A DNA stretch of 64,000 nucleotides. It comes from Bacteroidaceae bacterium (GTDB lineage Bacteria; Bacteroidota; Bacteroidia; Bacteroidales; Bacteroidaceae). Both the position numbers and the translations under genes were made by a program. The stretch covers positions 53,998-117,997 of the forward strand of contig JAEEGS010000040.1 in the NCBI GenBank assembly GCA_016280445.1, read 5' to 3'. Each line of letters starts with the position of its first letter. Position 1 is the first letter of the stretch. Positions 57,457 through 64,000 of the stretch are shown piece after piece. The notes beneath the pieces are model-generated. The model ran no database searches. It saw nothing but the letters and a program-made list of their open reading frames with translations, and was not told the origin of the DNA.

Positions 57457-57888
57457 ATGAAGACTTGGATTGAAATAGACGGTCGTCTCATCGACTTGGA
57501 GGCACATTTGTCGAGAGCCCGCACCATCGTCACGCTGGGCAAGAACTCAGAAGAAGCCTATAACGTGATAGCCTTGGACGACGAGGAACTCGATGTGTTT
57601 CAGTGTCAGTTCACCCGTTCTGGCGAAGGTTGGAAAGTACAGAACGGACAGTGGCGCACCGACTGTCCGAAGGGCATCCACTCCCGTCTACAACACGCCT
57701 GCAGCCTCTGCATGGGATGCTGTGTCAATGTGCACCCTGGGCAACCCACCTACGGATGGCGACTGCCCGAAAAGCCCACCCTCTGCAACGGAACCGAGAT
57801 AGGCACCGAAGGGGTGGACTTGAAAGATGGTGATGTGATAGAAGTGGGGAAGAGACGAATGATAGTAAAATTGAAAAATAAAGGTTAA
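57457..57888 (+). CDS. Small FHA-like protein with a Cys-rich insertion
   Basis: 143 aa with an FHA-like pattern (TIVTLGKNSE..., ...CNGTEIGTEGVDLKDGDVIEVGKRRMIV) interrupted by CPKGIHSRLQHACSLCMGCC. The C-terminal IVKLKNKG-stop is encoded by repeat B2. Confidence 0.5.
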   Translation: MKTWIEIDGRLIDLEAHLSRARTIVTLGKNSEEAYNVIALDDEELDVFQCQFTRSGEGWKVQNGQWRTDCPKGIHSRLQHACSLCMGCCVNVHPGQPTYGWRLPEKPTLCNGTEIGTEGVDLKDGDVIEVGKRRMIVKLKNKG

Positions 57889-57977
57889 AGTTTAAGGGTT
57901 AAAGGTTAAAGACCATGCGGCTTGTATGCATCGCGTTAGCCTTTCTTTAAACTTTAAACTGTAAACTCTAAACTTTA
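57861..57977 (+). repeat. Family B intergenic repeat, copy B2
   Basis: Near-identical to B1, with one extra GGTTAAAG unit and a shorter centre. Its 3' end supplies the last codons and stop of the convergent aminotransferase gene. Confidence 0.85.
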
Positions 57978-59164
57978 TCCCCACTCAACTGCTTAAGCGC
58001 CTGCTCCAGCACACTTCGCTGGGTACCCACATTTAGGCGCATGAAACCCTCACCGCCAGGGCCGAACATCTCGCCGTCGTTGAGAGCGAGGTGCGCCTTG
58101 TTGACGAATAAGTCGATGAGTTCCCTGTGGTTCAAGCCCAAGTCGCGGCAGTCGAGCCACACCAGATAGGAGGCCTGTGGACGCACAGGCTTTATTTTCG
58201 GGATATGCTCACGACAGTAGTCGATGAGGAAGTCAATATTCCCCTCCACATACCGCAACATCTGCTGCCGCCACTCCTCCCCCTGTTGCAAGGCTGCGAT
58301 GGTGGCGATGGGCGCAAACATATTGGGGTCGTTCAGTTCGTTGGCTGCCAGCCACTGGTAGAACGGCTTGCGCAACGCCTCGTTCGGGATGATGCACCAC
58401 GAACTCACGATGCCCGCCATATTGAACGTCTTTGTCGGAGCACCAAACGTGATGCTCACCTCGGCTGCCTCGTCGTTCACCGAAGCAAAAGGAATGTGCT
58501 TGTTGTCCCATAGCGCCATGTCGCAGTGAATCTCGTCGCTGATGACGATGAGATGGTGCTCCTTCGCAAAGTGAGCCAATCGCTGCAACGTCTCCCTGTC
58601 CCACACGAGGCCAGCAGGGTTGTGGGGATTTGCCAAGATGAGCAGACGACACTTCTCGTCGTACACCTGTTCGAGATTCTCGAAGTCCATCTCATAAAAG
58701 ACTCTCTCCCCATTATGGGGGAGGGCTGGGGAGAGGGTCTCCTTCAGCGGATTCCACACCACCTCCCGTTTGTTTCCCCTTGGGGTCAGGTAGAACGGAT
58801 GGTAGATGGGTGGTTGCACAATCACCTTCTCGTCCTCCTTCAGGAAGAAGTTGATAACCATGCCGATGCCCTTCACGATGCCAGGGATGTAGGTCAACCA
58901 TTCACGTTCCACCTTCCATTGGTGGTGCGCCTCTATCCATTGCTGCACCGTTGGCCAATAGTCCTTGGGTTCGACCGTATAGCCGAACAGCGAGTGGTTG
59001 AGCCGTTGTTTCAGGGCATCCGTGATGAAGGAAGGGGTTTCCCAATCCATATCAGCCACCCACAAGGGCACCAAATCACTCCGTCCATATCGTTCCTGAA
59101 GCACCTCATGCTTCAAATCGCCCGACCCACTGCGGTCAACGGGCTTGTCAAAATCGTATCTCAT
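57968..59164 (-). CDS. PLP-dependent C-S lyase / aminotransferase (PatB/MalY family, cystathionine beta-lyase-like)
   Basis: 398 aa class-I aminotransferase fold with the PatB/MalY-typical N-terminus (YDFDKPVDRSGSGDLKH) and APTKTFNMAG (PLP-Lys region). Confidence 0.8.
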   Translation of the reverse strand: MRYDFDKPVDRSGSGDLKHEVLQERYGRSDLVPLWVADMDWETPSFITDALKQRLNHSLFGYTVEPKDYWPTVQQWIEAHHQWKVEREWLTYIPGIVKGIGMVINFFLKEDEKVIVQPPIYHPFYLTPRGNKREVVWNPLKETLSPALPHNGERVFYEMDFENLEQVYDEKCRLLILANPHNPAGLVWDRETLQRLAHFAKEHHLIVISDEIHCDMALWDNKHIPFASVNDEAAEVSITFGAPTKTFNMAGIVSSWCIIPNEALRKPFYQWLAANELNDPNMFAPIATIAALQQGEEWRQQMLRYVEGNIDFLIDYCREHIPKIKPVRPQASYLVWLDCRDLGLNHRELIDLFVNKAHLALNDGEMFGPGGEGFMRLNVGTQRSVLEQALKQLSGDKV

Positions 59165-59310: not shown

Positions 59311-60897
59311 CTATCGAACATCAGCCACAATGCGTTCCAAGGCGATGACCAGACGGTCAACCTCTTCTTTGGTGTTATACACAGCAAAGGTGGGACGCAC
59401 GGACATTTCGTAGCCGAGGGCACGGAGGGCAGGTTGGGCACAGTGGTGTCCTGCACGCACGGCTATGCCCTCTTTGTCAAGCAACTGTCCCACCTGAGGG
59501 GCTGGAATACCCGGAATGTCGAGCGAGATGACGCTGACACGTTTCTTGGGGTTGCCCATGATGGTGATGCCTGGGATGCGTGATATTTGCTGTCGAGCAT
59601 ACTCGGTGAGTTCATGCTCGTGGCGTTCGATGTTGTGGATGCCCACACTCTGCACGAAGTCGAGCGCATAGCCCAATCCGATGGCATCGGCAATATTGGG
59701 TGTTCCTGCTTCGAAGCGAGCTGGAGGCACATTGAACTCGGTGCGCTCGAGGGTCACATCCTTGATCATGTTGCCTCCACCTTGCCAGGGTGGGAGCTGT
59801 TCGAGCCATTCCTTCTTTCCATAAACCACACCGATGCCCGAAGGCCCGTAAATCTTGTGGCCAGAGAAGACGAAGAAGTCTGCGTCGAGTTGCTGTACAT
59901 CCACCTTGGTGTGGGCGATGGACTGTGCACCATCGATGAGTACGGGGATGCCGTGGGCGTGAGCAGTGCGGATGATGCTTGCCACGTCGTTGATGGTGCC
60001 AAAAGTATTGTTCACATGACCTACGCTGACGAACTTGGTGCGGGGCGTGATGAGACGCTCCAGTTCGCTGAGGATGAGGTCACCGTTCTTGTCGATAGGG
60101 ATGGCACGGAGTTCTGCCTTACGTTCCTTGCTGATTTGCTGCCAAGGCACGATGTTGGCGTGGTGGTCAAGGGTGGAGACAATCACGTTGTCGCCCTCTT
60201 CCAAGAACTTGCGTCCGAAGGTCTGTGCCACGAGGTTGATGCCCTCGGTGGTGCCGCGCACAAAGAGGATGTTCTCCTTGGATGGGGCATTGATGAAACG
60301 GGCCACCTTCTCTCGTGCACCTTCATACTGGTCGGTGCTTCGTGCTGCCAGCGTGTGTGCGCCACGGTGTATGTTGGAGTAGTCCGTCTTGTAGAAGTGG
60401 CTCACTCCGTCAATGACCCTCAGAGGCTTCTGCGTGGTGGCACCATTGTCGAACCACACGAGGTCGTGCCCGTTCACCTTCTGATGCAGAATGGGGAACT
60501 GCTTGCGAATCTCGTCGGTGTTGACCGTGTCAGCCTCGTCGTAGTGGAGGTGCCGCACGATGTCCGTCTCTGGGATGCCAATGCCGAACCCGTTGTCAGT
60601 TGACAGTTGAGAGTCGAAAGTGGGCAGTTGGGCATCATCCGAATAGGATGCACCAGCAGGAGCAGACTGCCCCGATTGCAAGTCCTCGGCAAAGTACTTC
60701 TCCACCACTTTGCGGAAGAGGCACTGGTCAGCAGAACTCAGCCCACCAATCTGGGGTGCTGCACCCCCTGCCAAGGAAGTGGCGGGAATGGGCAGTGATG
60801 ACAAGTCCAACTCGTCAGGAGCCTCGTTCGGCACAGCCACCTGCGGCACATTACCCCTATCCGGCAAGTCAAAATGGAAATTATCTAATTCGTACAT
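59311..60897 (-). CDS. SufS-type (group II) cysteine desulfurase with a ~125-aa low-complexity N-terminal extension; candidate encapsulin cargo
   Basis: Core motifs HHANIVPWQ, SGHKIYGPSGIGV (PLP-Lys) and RAGHHCAQP (catalytic Cys). The N-terminal 125 aa are rich in P/S/A/G/D/Q, with one amphipathic stretch, CLFRKVVEKYFAEDL. Confidence 0.85.
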   Translation of the reverse strand: MYELDNFHFDLPDRGNVPQVAVPNEAPDELDLSSLPIPATSLAGGAAPQIGGLSSADQCLFRKVVEKYFAEDLQSGQSAPAGASYSDDAQLPTFDSQLSTDNGFGIGIPETDIVRHLHYDEADTVNTDEIRKQFPILHQKVNGHDLVWFDNGATTQKPLRVIDGVSHFYKTDYSNIHRGAHTLAARSTDQYEGAREKVARFINAPSKENILFVRGTTEGINLVAQTFGRKFLEEGDNVIVSTLDHHANIVPWQQISKERKAELRAIPIDKNGDLILSELERLITPRTKFVSVGHVNNTFGTINDVASIIRTAHAHGIPVLIDGAQSIAHTKVDVQQLDADFFVFSGHKIYGPSGIGVVYGKKEWLEQLPPWQGGGNMIKDVTLERTEFNVPPARFEAGTPNIADAIGLGYALDFVQSVGIHNIERHEHELTEYARQQISRIPGITIMGNPKKRVSVISLDIPGIPAPQVGQLLDKEGIAVRAGHHCAQPALRALGYEMSVRPTFAVYNTKEEVDRLVIALERIVADVR

Positions 60898-61008
60898 AAA
60901 GTTTAGAGTTTATAGTTTAAAGTTTAAAGAAAGGCTAACGCAGTGTTGAAAAACAAACCGCATGGTCTTTAACCTTTAACCCTTAAACTTTAACCTTTAT
61001 TTTTCAAT
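60898..61008 (-). repeat. Family B intergenic repeat, copy B3, filling the shell-cargo spacer
   Basis: The reverse complement matches B1/B2 (ATTGAAAAATAAAGGTTAAAGTTTAAGGGTTAAAGGTTAAAGACCATGCGG...CTTTAAACTTTAAACTATAAACTCTAAACTTT). It contains the shell gene stop and abuts the desulfurase ATG. Confidence 0.85.
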
Positions 61009-62436
61009 CTTGTTTCTGTGCTGATAATCGTGATAGTAGCCCACCTCCACATTCTCGAGGACTGCAATCGCATCGTCGGTGAGAGAAGCGAGGCTGAAAT
61101 ACTTGGTGAGCAGATAACTTGCCACGCCATACTGGTCAAGACCCATCAAACGTGCCGAGAGGCTTGGAGCGATTTCGCCAGGGATGCCAGCCTGATGCAG
61201 ACCTACCACACCCTGCTCTTTCTCGCCTACACGCACAAGGATAATCTCAGTGGTGCCCACGCCACGATTGGTCAGGTACTGACCCTTGATTTCCACCTTG
61301 TCAGATGGGATGATAGGCACACCACGCCAAGTGATGACTTTCGTGCCGAAGAGGTCGATAGACACAGGAGGCACACCACGCCAAGTGCACTCACGCTCGA
61401 AAGCAGCGATGGCACGTGGGTTGGCAATGAAGAAAGCAGGCTCTTTCCACACGAGTGACAGGAGTTCGTCGAGGTCGTCAGGTGTAGGCGCACCATAACG
61501 TGTGCTGATTTTGTAGCCTGGAGCCGTCTGAGCCAAGAGTCCGAACTTCTTGTTGTTGATGAGTTCCCACTCCTGACGCTCCTTGATGCTTTCGATGGAG
61601 AGGCGCAACTGCTGTTCGAGCTGGTTGTAGGGAGCGTTGTAGAGGTCACTCACACGGGTGTGTACACGCACCACTGTCTGCAGGGTATTGAGAGAGTACT
61701 CTGTTGGATTCTCCTCATAGTCAATATAGGTCTCTGGGATGACATTATCCTCCTCATGACCGCTCACAAGGTCAATATGCTTCTCACCGTGATCATTCAC
61801 CGTAGCCTTCAGACGCAGGTGCTCATCCACCGCCTTGTTGAACTGCTCGCGGAAGTCAGGAATCTCCTCGATGAGTGACTCCAATACAGGAGTCTCCAAT
61901 GCCAGGAACACAGAATCCGTCACGGCACGTACACTCACCGTAGAGTCTGCCGCACTCAGCAAGTCAGCCTCACCGAAGTACTCACCATCGCCCAAGAGTG
62001 CGATGCGCAGTTCCTCACCATGAGTACCTGTGCTGATGACCTCAGCCTGTCCATTAGCCACGATGAAGAACTTCTGCTTGTCCTTTCCCTGAGTGACGAG
62101 GTTCTTGCCACGAGCCACCTCTACAGGCACGAAATTGCGAGCCAAACGAGCCACAATCTCCTGCTTGATGTTCTGGAAGAGCGGAATGGCACGGAGATTC
62201 TTCGCCGTGAAACTGGGCACGCCATCGAAGTACTGAATCTCGATGCGTTCAGCCTTTTTCAGTTCCACCTTCGTACGGTTCACACGATAGGTGCCACTTT
62301 CCACCTGCTGCCAGGGAAGGAGTTTGAGGAGAAGTCTCGGTGTGATACTGCCCATTTGAGGGGCTGTCTTGGTGGTGTTCGCTAGTTTGCGAGCCGTTGC
62401 AGTCGTGATACTGCGCTGAATGTTGTTGTCTGCCAT
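60997..62436 (-). CDS. Family 2B-type encapsulin shell protein candidate (cNMP-binding-domain insertion plus HK97-like body)
   Basis: 479 aa. Residues ~80-190 form a CAP-type cyclic-nucleotide-binding fold (LFQNI..., GDGEYFGE...VRAVT). The remainder has no enzyme motifs. It lies immediately upstream of an N-terminally extended cysteine desulfurase, which is the hallmark Family 2 arrangement. Confidence 0.7.
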   Translation of the reverse strand: MADNNIQRSITTATARKLANTTKTAPQMGSITPRLLLKLLPWQQVESGTYRVNRTKVELKKAERIEIQYFDGVPSFTAKNLRAIPLFQNIKQEIVARLARNFVPVEVARGKNLVTQGKDKQKFFIVANGQAEVISTGTHGEELRIALLGDGEYFGEADLLSAADSTVSVRAVTDSVFLALETPVLESLIEEIPDFREQFNKAVDEHLRLKATVNDHGEKHIDLVSGHEEDNVIPETYIDYEENPTEYSLNTLQTVVRVHTRVSDLYNAPYNQLEQQLRLSIESIKERQEWELINNKKFGLLAQTAPGYKISTRYGAPTPDDLDELLSLVWKEPAFFIANPRAIAAFERECTWRGVPPVSIDLFGTKVITWRGVPIIPSDKVEIKGQYLTNRGVGTTEIILVRVGEKEQGVVGLHQAGIPGEIAPSLSARLMGLDQYGVASYLLTKYFSLASLTDDAIAVLENVEVGYYHDYQHRNKIEK

Positions 62437-62456: not shown

Positions 62457-62852
62457 TTATCTTAGTGTAATTTTCTCAGTTACTTCTCCCTCTGCGATGC
62501 GGAAAGCATTGAGCACAGGTTTCTCTTCTGCCAGCGAGAGGATGAAATAGAGGATGTTAGGGTCGTATGCCAAGCGCTTGTCTTCTTCCGAAGGACGGGA
62601 GGGTGAAGCAGGATGGCTGTGCCAGTTGCCCACAATCTTCAAGCCCTGCTGACGGGCATATTTGATGGCGGCAAACTGCTCCTTGGGGTCGAAACTGAAG
62701 TGCTCCTCCGAGTGGTCGATGTTGGTCATCGGGAAGTTCTCCGTAGCCGTTTCCTTGTCGGGACCCAGCAGATAACCGCACGACTCCACAGGGGCATCCT
62801 TCTGTGCTTGCGCCAAGATGGACTGATATGCCGATTCCGTGATAGTGACCAT
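62457..62852 (-). CDS. JAMM/MPN+ metalloprotease (Mov34 family; Mec+/QbsD-like)
   Basis: 131 aa with the JAMM motif HSHPASPSRPSEED (HxHx7SxxD) and an upstream Glu (VESCGYLLG). Its start overlaps the TusA stop by 1 nt (TAATG). Confidence 0.85.
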   Translation of the reverse strand: MVTITESAYQSILAQAQKDAPVESCGYLLGPDKETATENFPMTNIDHSEEHFSFDPKEQFAAIKYARQQGLKIVGNWHSHPASPSRPSEEDKRLAYDPNILYFILSLAEEKPVLNAFRIAEGEVTEKITLR

Positions 62853-63076
62853 TACTTTTGTATTGTTACTTTGTGAACATTTCCTTCCACGTGTTCCACG
62901 GAGAGGACGTTGTAGCCCTGTTCCTTCGCCGAACGAGGCACATTCTCCAAAGGTTCCCCTTCAGTCAGGAGCACTTCAAGTGTGTCACCTGCTGCTATCT
63001 GCGCCAATTTGAGTTTGGTCTTTACGAAGGTCATGGGGCAATGTTCCTTCGTGATGTCAAGTGTATGTATAGCCAT
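62852..63076 (-). CDS. TusA/SirA-family sulfurtransferase
   Basis: 74 aa with the conserved Cys motif LDITKEHCPMTFVKTK. Confidence 0.85.
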   Translation of the reverse strand: MAIHTLDITKEHCPMTFVKTKLKLAQIAAGDTLEVLLTEGEPLENVPRSAKEQGYNVLSVEHVEGNVHKVTIQK

Positions 63077-63091
63077 AATGAAAGTGAAAAA

Positions 63092-63571
63092 TTAAATAAA
63101 CAAAGTCTGTCCTCCCTCGCTGAGGTTCAGGAATGAGGCTACACCGAGCACATCCTTCACTTCGGGGATGAAATCTGTCTTTTCCAAACCGAGCACGTGC
63201 ATCGCCATCTCGCAGGCATAGAGGTTCACACCCAATGCATTGGCTGCATCGACGAGTTCTTCGAGGGTAGCCACGTTGTTCTTACGCATCAAGGAGCGGA
63301 AGATTTGAGGGCCAATGCCAGCGAAGTTGAAGCGGCTGTTGGGGGCGACACTCAGTCCACCCATCATGAAACCAAAGAGTTTCGTGAGCCAGTTGCCACC
63401 CGTGAAACTGCGTCCACGCTTCTGCTTGATGGCATCCAAACCCCAGAAGGTGAAGAAGATGTTGACCTCGTAACCCACAGCAGCAGCACCTGTTGCCAGC
63501 GTGAAAACTGCTGTCAGTTTATCGAAGTCGCCAGAGAAGGCGATGAGTGAGAGTTTCTTTTGTTCTGCCAT
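63092..63571 (-). CDS. DsrE/DsrF-like sulfur-relay family protein
   Basis: ~159 aa (start set at MAEQKKLSLIAFSG). DsrE-like Rossmann pattern with the conserved Cys in LYACEMAM. Confidence 0.7.
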   Translation of the reverse strand: MAEQKKLSLIAFSGDFDKLTAVFTLATGAAAVGYEVNIFFTFWGLDAIKQKRGRSFTGGNWLTKLFGFMMGGLSVAPNSRFNFAGIGPQIFRSLMRKNNVATLEELVDAANALGVNLYACEMAMHVLGLEKTDFIPEVKDVLGVASFLNLSEGGQTLFI

Positions 63572-63578
63572 ATTCTTT

Positions 63579-64000
63579 TTATTTGTGTAGGTCGCAAGCA
63601 GCCTGTTCGTAATCAATGAGTTCTGTGATGGTTGGATTCGTGCCACAGATGGGGCATCGGTCTGTCTTCTTCACATTGATCTTGCGGAAGTCCATCGTCT
63701 TGGCATTGAAGGTGAGCAACTTGTTGGTGAGCAGTTCGCCCACACCTGTCAGGTACTTCAACGTTTCTGCTGCCTGAATCGTGCCCAACATACCTGCAAT
63801 GGCTCCCAACACACCTGCCTGACTGCACGTAGGCACGGCTCCTGGTGGGGGTGGTGTCTTAAACATACAACGGTAACAAGCTGTTCCTGGCACATGGGTG
63901 AAGGTTTGTCCCTCAAAACGGAGGATGCCACCATGACTGAAAGGTTTGCCTGCCATCACACAGGCATCGTTGATGAGGAACTTCACAGGGAAGTTATCGG
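63579..64000 (-). CDS. ThiF/MoeB-type E1-like adenylyltransferase, C-terminal part (the gene continues beyond the window)
   Basis: ...LINDACVMAGKPFSHGG..., with zinc-binding CxxC pairs (CYRC, CPIC) as in MoeB/ThiF. The frame is open to the window edge. Confidence 0.8.
   Translation of the reverse strand, partial: DNFPVKFLINDACVMAGKPFSHGGILRFEGQTFTHVPGTACYRCMFKTPPPPGAVPTCSQAGVLGAIAGMLGTIQAAETLKYLTGVGELLTNKLLTFNAKTMDFRKINVKKTDRCPICGTNPTITELIDYEQAACDLHK

Follow-up and report, generated by a model that had tools for sequence, protein, structure and literature searches.

Two kinds of described sulfur systems resemble the gene cluster examined here, which lies at the edge of a 64,000-nucleotide (nt) stretch of DNA from a Bacteroidaceae bacterium (GenBank assembly GCA_016280445.1, contig JAEEGS010000040.1, positions 53,998 to 117,997 of the forward strand; hereafter "the window") and in which genes for a partial E1 enzyme, a DsrE2-like protein, TusA and a JAMM peptidase (minus strand, 62457-64000) are located directly upstream of genes for a Family 2B encapsulin and a cysteine desulfurase. 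The first kind is the HcyS/HcyF/HcyD/MetY pathway of Wolinella and Firmicutes, which is homologous to the ThiS/ThiF/JAMM/TusA/MetY module of the cluster. In Wolinella succinogenes, the carrier protein of this pathway is loaded from sulfide, and HcyD trims the carrier's tail. This protein-thiocarboxylate route to homocysteine was reportedly described by Krishnamoorthy and Begley in 2011. The sulfur donor of Wolinella MetY is the carrier-protein thiocarboxylate and not bisulfide. Among the gene neighbourhoods of E1-like enzymes, the pathway corresponds to type 4e of Iyer, Burroughs and Aravind (2006; PMC1779556), which always has an E1 without a rhodanese domain and always includes SirA (TusA).

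The second kind is the Family 2 desulfurase encapsulin, exemplified by S. elongatus SrpI and A. baumannii Enc-CD. There, as here, a gene for an SrpI-like shell of the HK97 fold is followed by a gene for a SufS-type desulfurase; the desulfurase carries a disordered N-terminal loading domain, and the pair occurs in a sulfur context with accessory genes of cysteine synthesis. The published accessory genes encode rhodanese and serine O-acetyltransferase, whereas the cluster described here has TusA and DsrE2, CysK and a ubiquitin-like carrier pathway, with no rhodanese. The shell differs as well, since ours is of Family 2B, with a cyclic nucleotide-binding (cNMP) domain, and the systems of Nichols et al. 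(2021) and Benisch et al. (2024) are of Family 2A. For the 199 Family 2B desulfurase operons that they counted, Andreas and Giessen (2021) name no accessory genes other than those for serine O-acetyltransferase and rhodanese. Of the papers that a literature search brought up, none studied a Family 2B desulfurase system experimentally.

The genes of the cluster that fall within the window are as follows (aa, amino acids):

63579..64000, minus strand: ThiF/MoeB-type E1 adenylyltransferase (HcyF-like), 3′ 140 codons (Pfam ThiF PF00899, E 4e-30)
63092..63571, minus strand, ATG at 63571: DsrE2-like (DrsE_2) putative persulfide carrier, 159 aa (PF13686, E 5e-39)
62852..63076, minus strand: TusA/SirA-type sulfurtransferase, 74 aa (PF01206, E 2e-22)
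62457..62852, minus strand: JAMM/MPN+ metallopeptidase (HcyD-like), 131 aa (Prok-JAB PF14464, E 1e-25)
60997..62436, minus strand: Family 2B encapsulin shell, 479 aa, HK97 SrpI-like fold with an inserted cNMP-binding domain (NF041163)
59311..60897, minus strand: SufS-type cysteine desulfurase, presumed cargo, with an N-terminal extension of about 120 aa (Aminotran_5, E 1e-143)
57968..59164, minus strand: PatB-family C-S lyase at the 3′ end of the cluster (TIGR04350, 440 bits, cut-off 340)

An earlier reading made from the letters alone (the sequence-only reading) had placed the five minus-strand genes from E1 to shell at these positions, and the frames and Pfam matches agree with it. The gaps that it gave between the E1, DsrE2, TusA, JAMM and shell genes (7, 15, −1 and 20 nt) are exactly those read from the sequence, with the JAMM start overlapping the TusA stop as TAATG. 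The E1 frame runs open to the window edge at 64000, and its translation includes DNFPVKFLINDACV. The exact JAMM protein sequence of the window is present on 21 public contigs. Over 9.3 kb, one of these contigs (L005) matches the window at 99.9% identity; across the toolkit, others match it at about 97% nucleotide identity, and these reach further upstream. In the latter contigs, the genes follow the order regulator-MetY-CysK-ThiS-ThiF-DsrE2-TusA-JAMM-Enc-CyD on one strand (Enc, encapsulin shell; CyD, cysteine desulfurase), and the regulator is a response regulator of the GerE/NarL type. Because ThiS is located directly upstream of the E1 gene in these contigs, a ThiS gene is predicted just past position 64000, which is where the sequence-only reading had expected a ThiS/MoaD-like carrier.

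A scan with the shell protein across one genome per GTDB species found at least 541 stretches encoding a close relative. We surveyed the 80 closest of these (81-99% identity), together with a handful of outgroups, by mapping eleven query proteins onto the shell loci. The best 80 relatives all come from metagenome-assembled genomes (MAGs) of rumen or gut Bacteroidales, and all surveyed loci but one, which belongs to an isolate, are metagenome-assembled. Linkage was counted in the 73 loci whose sequence continues for 1.5 kb or more upstream of the shell gene and in the 37 long-flank loci that have at least 6 kb on each side. DsrE2 and TusA are located directly upstream of the shell gene in all 73 loci, and the arrangement is therefore not due to chance. 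In the long-flank loci, ThiS, ThiF and JAMM are present together in 34 of 37, CysK in 34 and MetY in 30. The desulfurase gene comes after the shell gene in 77 loci. The toolkit genes are arranged in 11 different orders, among them MetY-CysK-DsrE2-TusA-Enc-CyD-ThiS-ThiF-JAMM, ThiS-ThiF-JAMM-CysK-DsrE2-TusA-Enc-CyD-MetY and the window-type order, in which the ThiS module is interleaved with DsrE2-TusA. Given that membership is preserved while gene order is reshuffled, the survey provides strong evidence that the toolkit genes and the encapsulin are functionally coupled. The linkage proposed from the window alone thus extends to about 80 species in several gene orders, with (CysK-)DsrE2-TusA-Enc-CyD as its tightest unit.

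Outside this group, in a library clustered at 50% identity, no other full-length shell among the matches listed is more than 48% identical. Of the four nearest 50%-cluster representatives, one is on a contig too short to judge; in the other three, neither TusA, DsrE2 nor ThiS is found beside the shell and desulfurase genes, and the same genes are absent from the desulfurase-shell loci of Kitasatospora (2B), Methylobacterium (2B) and Azospirillum (2A). One near relative outside the group, a 2B shell with 48% identity (L102, 572-3118; 848 aa), carries a fused beta-propeller domain at its C-terminus, and a desulfurase gene follows it. A Tannerellaceae MAG with the whole toolkit (L093, 9134-9979) encodes, between the JAMM and shell genes, a 281-aa hexapeptide-repeat protein that is probably a serine O-acetyltransferase, so that the published type of accessory gene and the toolkit occur in one locus.

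The ThiS protein links the cluster to the HcyS-type pathway. It passes the cut-off of the thiS model TIGR01683 (64 bits versus 37.45), and in 72 of the 72 loci with a ThiS match its C-terminal region ends in ...FLYFMGGG (in one case, FLFFMGGG), followed by a tail of 1 to about 19 residues that is conserved neither in sequence nor in length (for example, R, SR, AF, C, QYV, AYV, GFTI and TANVSNLANE). The same signature is found in Firmicutes. The best PDB match of JAMM is 2kks (E 3e-33; PfJAMM1 matches too), and homologues of 2kks in Syntrophobotulus glycolicus, Acetivibrio mesophilus and Caproiciproducens are located in type 4e clusters with the order sulfate ABC transporter-CysH/CysD/CysNC-ThiS-ThiF-JAB-small sulfite reductase-TusA-MetY. 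ThiS in these three clusters ends in EFLYFMGGGAR, ...GGGAL and ...GGGQYKKIA. Identities between Bacteroidales and Firmicutes cluster proteins are 62-66% for ThiF, 48-52% for JAMM and 41-49% for TusA. The MetY-like enzyme of the cluster has as its best PDB relative 3RI6 (352 bits), which is the W. succinogenes MetY according to its PDB entry; the runner-up MetY scores 230 bits. By this kinship, the cluster's MetY would be of the thiocarboxylate-using type. HcyS-type and Bacteroidales clusters hence have in common a carrier ending in FLYFMGGG plus a tail, a rhodanese-less E1, a JAB peptidase, SirA/TusA and a 3RI6-like MetY. Judged by the ThiS signature, the kinship of MetY with 3RI6 and the homology to the Firmicutes clusters, the ThiS/ThiF/JAMM/TusA/MetY part belongs to a pathway family that is already known and has been characterised biochemically.

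Because the ThiS tail is always present and never conserved, we suggest that ThiS is made as what looks like a precursor, whose tail would be trimmed by the co-encoded JAMM to a bare glycine C-terminus for adenylation. The sequence-only reading had JAMM releasing the product; a peptidase acting on the carrier fits our data, with its action most likely being the trimming of the variable C-terminal tail and not release alone.

The two groups of clusters differ in their source of sulfur. HcyS-type Firmicutes clusters have sulfate uptake and activation genes and a sulfite reductase, with neither DsrE2 nor encapsulin, whereas the Bacteroidales clusters have Enc (2B), CyD, DsrE2 and CysK in place of the sulfate genes. 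No sulfate genes or sulfite reductase were found in the gene tables of L001-L003 and L091 or in the mapped loci. By gene content, the sulfur-source module is swapped, and a presumably encapsulated desulfurase takes the place that a sulfite reductase has in homologous clusters. TusA is already part of the HcyS-type module, so that the additions are DsrE2 and the encapsulin/desulfurase pair.

Other thiocarboxylate systems are more distant. The sequence-only reading had pointed to the CysO/Mec+ cysteine route and thioquinolobactin-type systems as analogues, and HcyS-HcyF-HcyD-MetY displaces them as the closest one. The CysO/CysM/Mec+/MoeZ pathway of M. tuberculosis likewise uses a ubiquitin-like thiocarboxylate donor and a JAMM protein, but its E1 is rhodanese-fused and its acceptor is CysM. 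We ruled it out for this cluster, where ThiF has no rhodanese part and the PALP enzyme is CysK (451 bits versus the cysK cut-off of 351) and fails the CysM cut-offs. Siderophore biosynthesis genes, which belong to the thioquinolobactin QbsCDE-type system, are not present in the annotated neighbourhoods. The MetO/MetM/Mec/MoeZ system of Streptomyces (Hasebe 2024, as summarized in the GapMind 2026 preprint) also has a thiocarboxylate donor and a JAMM peptidase; its E1 carries a rhodanese domain and, in that summary, its acceptor is the threonine-synthase-like MetM, where the acceptor here is MetY.

A precedent for the persulfide part is the E. coli Tus relay, in which sulfur passes from IscS to TusA, TusBCD, TusE and MnmA, and in which TusD is a DsrE homologue. 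This relay and the TusA/DsrE3 relays of sulfur oxidisers share with the cluster a desulfurase, TusA and a DsrE-family protein with a conserved cysteine. They differ in that the Tus relay has a TusBCD heterohexamer, whereas the cluster has a single DrsE_2 protein, a presumably enclosed desulfurase and a predicted ThiS-type end acceptor; no TusE/DsrC or MnmA partners are found in the annotated neighbourhoods. The DsrE2-like protein has 2qs7 and 3pnx as PDB relatives, the latter titled "putative sulfurtransferase DsrE." Residues expected of a working toolkit are retained: Cys120 in the ACEMAM motif of DsrE2 (73 sequences), the TusA active-site Cys13-Pro14 (72 sequences) and the GxGxxG, CxxC and PTCSQAGVLG motifs of ThiF (65 distinct sequences) are invariant, and the JAMM metal site (Glu23 and H78-x-H80-x7-S88-x2-D91) is conserved in 64 sequences. 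The full-length E1 of related contigs has 268 aa and no rhodanese domain. Its match to the MoeZ and MoeB models is confined to their adenylyltransferase part, and the L001 protein passes the NF004281 MoeB subfamily cut-off (283 versus 266 bits).

Taking these observations together, we think it fairly probable that the cluster is one conserved Bacteroidales sulfur-amino-acid operon, in which the encapsulated desulfurase is the sulfur source for a protein-thiocarboxylate homocysteine pathway. In such a route, CysK would make cysteine, which the enclosed desulfurase would turn into alanine and either persulfide or stored elemental sulfur (S0), and TusA and DsrE2, as cysteine persulfide carriers, would collect the sulfane sulfur at or outside the shell. 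JAMM would remove the variable tail from the ThiS-type carrier so that it ends in ...MGGG, rhodanese-less ThiF would adenylate the carrier, and the persulfide sulfur would then give the thiocarboxylate ThiS-COSH, from which the Wolinella-type MetY would form homocysteine with O-acylhomoserine. We infer each sulfur-transfer step from homology, the swap of the sulfur-source module and the E. coli precedent IscS to TusA to TusD; co-transcription of the cluster and passage of sulfur across the shell are presumed. A more specific form of the proposal is possible, and we put it forward tentatively: the shell with its cNMP domains may be a gated sulfur reservoir, from which TusA and DsrE2, docked on or near it, would pass the desulfurase's sulfur to the ubiquitin-like carrier for homocysteine synthesis.

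Several points weigh against this route. The solved Family 2A shell has pores of at most 6 Å, through which neither proteins nor glutathione should enter; TusA and DsrE2 therefore could not reach the desulfurase directly, and an exit step is needed. The shell crossing is the weakest link of the proposal, for which a small carrier, a gated pore or docking at external cNMP domains must be postulated. Sulfide is plentiful in the rumen, and with sulfide loading of the Wolinella type, the ThiS module may not need a desulfurase at all. Because CysK is an ordinary CysK, a cycle from cysteine through the desulfurase back to cysteine would be futile, and the homocysteine branch alone would be productive. 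The evidence for the carrier, CysK and MetY comes from near-identical strains and not from the window itself. Finally, CysK-DsrE2-TusA-Enc-CyD occurs with no ThiS, ThiF or JAMM within 10 kb in the isolate Viscerimonas tarda and in 3 of the 37 long-flank MAG loci.

Some of these points would fit a reading in which the genes share a regulon and there is no hand-off of sulfur. The carrier would be loaded from free sulfide, the encapsulin and desulfurase would form a separate compartment for cysteine detoxification or sulfur storage, and the genes would be clustered only through a common response to sulfur status. The narrow pores of the 2A shell, which bar proteins and shield stored S0 from cytosolic reductants, favour such a separation, as do the homologous Firmicutes modules, which work with sulfite reductase, a sulfide producer, and the genomes that have DsrE2-TusA-Enc-CyD with no ThiS, ThiF or JAMM nearby. 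However, DsrE2 and TusA adjoin the shell gene in every one of the 73 loci and remain there when ThiS-ThiF-JAMM relocates; Enc, CyD and DsrE2 hold the position of the sulfide-producing enzyme of homologous clusters; and in window-type loci the modules are interleaved, with gaps of 7-20 nt and the TAATG overlap. We consider a mere shared regulon rather unlikely. Loci with the core unit and no ThiS module, in V. tarda and a few MAGs, would also be expected if TusA and DsrE2 were the encapsulin's dedicated acceptors, standing in for the 2A rhodanese and serving iron-sulfur clusters, tRNA thiolation, molybdenum cofactor or reverse loading, with the ThiS module being one client among several or a mere neighbour. 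TusA is pleiotropic in E. coli, in keeping with such a role. A shell-docking rhodanese has been proposed for remobilising stored sulfur (Benisch et al. 2024). Yet ThiS, ThiF and JAMM are kept in 34, and MetY in 30, of the 37 long-flank loci, and no iron-sulfur, tRNA-thiolation or molybdenum cofactor genes are found in the annotated neighbourhoods, which makes this account improbable in our view. Lastly, ThiS, E1 and JAMM could form a SAMPylation-like conjugation system that has the shell, the cargo or other proteins as its targets and carries no sulfur. NCBIfam matches below cut-off do include UbaA for ThiF (second-best) and desampylase for JAMM, and archaeal SAMPs serve in both conjugation and sulfur carriage. 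Given that the cluster contains no E2-like or ligase gene, is tied to a thiocarboxylate-type MetY and TusA, and is orthologous to clusters linked to sulfate assimilation, we give conjugation very little credence.

We regard the cluster as a new type of desulfurase-encapsulin operon and as a new variant of the HcyS pathway that differs in its sulfur source, assembled from known parts, and not as a new kind of system. Full-text searches found no literature that joins an encapsulin with TusA or a thiocarboxylate, with the supplementary tables of Andreas and Giessen being searchable only in part and those of Nichols et al. giving no match; within the searchable encapsulin literature, the combination is undescribed, as the sequence-only reading had supposed. 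The legend to Fig. S5A of Andreas and Giessen lists "sulfur metabolism," "cofactor synthesis" and "amino acid synthesis" components that it does not specify, and the toolkit genes may therefore already be drawn there without interpretation. According to Benisch et al. (2024), who demonstrated storage of elemental sulfur in desulfurase encapsulins, a mechanism is needed for remobilising it, and the role that they give to a rhodanese is speculative. The operon offers candidates both for remobilisation (TusA and DsrE2) and for a destination (ThiS thiocarboxylate feeding MetY), which makes the question testable with a few small proteins. If the gated-reservoir form of our proposal is true, sulfur held in an encapsulin would for the first time have a defined way out and a defined downstream user, and dominant rumen and gut Bacteroidales would have a sulfide-free route of sulfur from cysteine to methionine. 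The system is common, with the at least 541 stretches found in GTDB species representatives and those inspected coming from abundant rumen and gut Bacteroidales, whose supply of sulfur amino acids matters for animal nutrition.

The assignments of shell and cargo rest on family models. The shell scores 562 bits against the NCBIfam Family 2B encapsulin model NF041163 (cut-off 400), matches the Pfam families SrpI-like PF19307 (E 5e-112) and cNMP_binding PF00027 (E 4e-15), and is 78-99% identical across Bacteroidales. The desulfurase scores 553 bits against the sufS model TIGR01979 (cut-off 475), and its catalytic part, which begins near residue 125, scores 695 bits against the Family 2A cargo model, below the cut-off of 800. 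The N-terminal region of the desulfurase varies in length and has the short motifs KY[FC]xE[DE] and GFGIGIPE in common, as seen by eye in sampled sequences. We presume that the desulfurase is the shell's cargo. The cNMP-binding domain of the shell comprises residues ~105-190 (window 61900-62130). In a BLASTP alignment of the shell with E. coli CRP, Ser-Thr occupies the place of CRP Arg82-Ser83 in the phosphate-binding cassette, with a gap close to the cassette that makes the register uncertain. Given this substitution, the shell's ligand may be other than cyclic AMP.

Two kinds of variation were observed upstream of the window's end. Between ThiS ...GGGQ and the YV-stop/ThiF start, just past window position 64000, an in-frame 111-nt stretch is present in zero, one or two tandem copies among closely related strains (L001, 8348-8458; L002, 8202-8419; the same site in L003, L006, L010 and L012). 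With it, the ThiS tail grows from 3 residues to about 40 or 83; the stretch is bounded by a GGAGGACAG direct repeat and holds a perfect 8-bp hairpin. We rejected a mobile element or a structured RNA as its explanation, there being no second copy in the window or the loci compared for this purpose and no Rfam match; the cleavable tail of ThiS seems to tolerate insertions. No riboswitch or other known RNA turned up when the extended operon (L001, 4800-10500) was compared with Rfam at E values up to 1. The MetY-like gene occurs in two alleles with proteins 77-78% identical (L001, 5833-7008, versus L002, L003, L004, L007 and L010), in strains where CysK, ThiF, DsrE2, TusA and JAMM are 98-100% identical, which suggests allelic replacement by recombination at the MetY-like gene alone.

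Within the window, a terminator scan found no coding-strand terminator-like hairpin in the short intergenic gaps. A scan for sigma-70 promoters and terminators found sites no more numerous than in shuffled sequence; because Bacteroidetes promoters lie outside the scan's model, the operon structure is still deduced. The PatB-family C-S lyase gene is present in only 5 of the 37 long-flank loci and is thus a lineage-variable accessory gene. Convergent with it is a cysteine-rich open reading frame of 143 aa (window 57457-57888, plus strand), which has a weak FHA match (E 0.0075) and no NCBIfam match, and which is also called in the 99.9%-identical contig L005.

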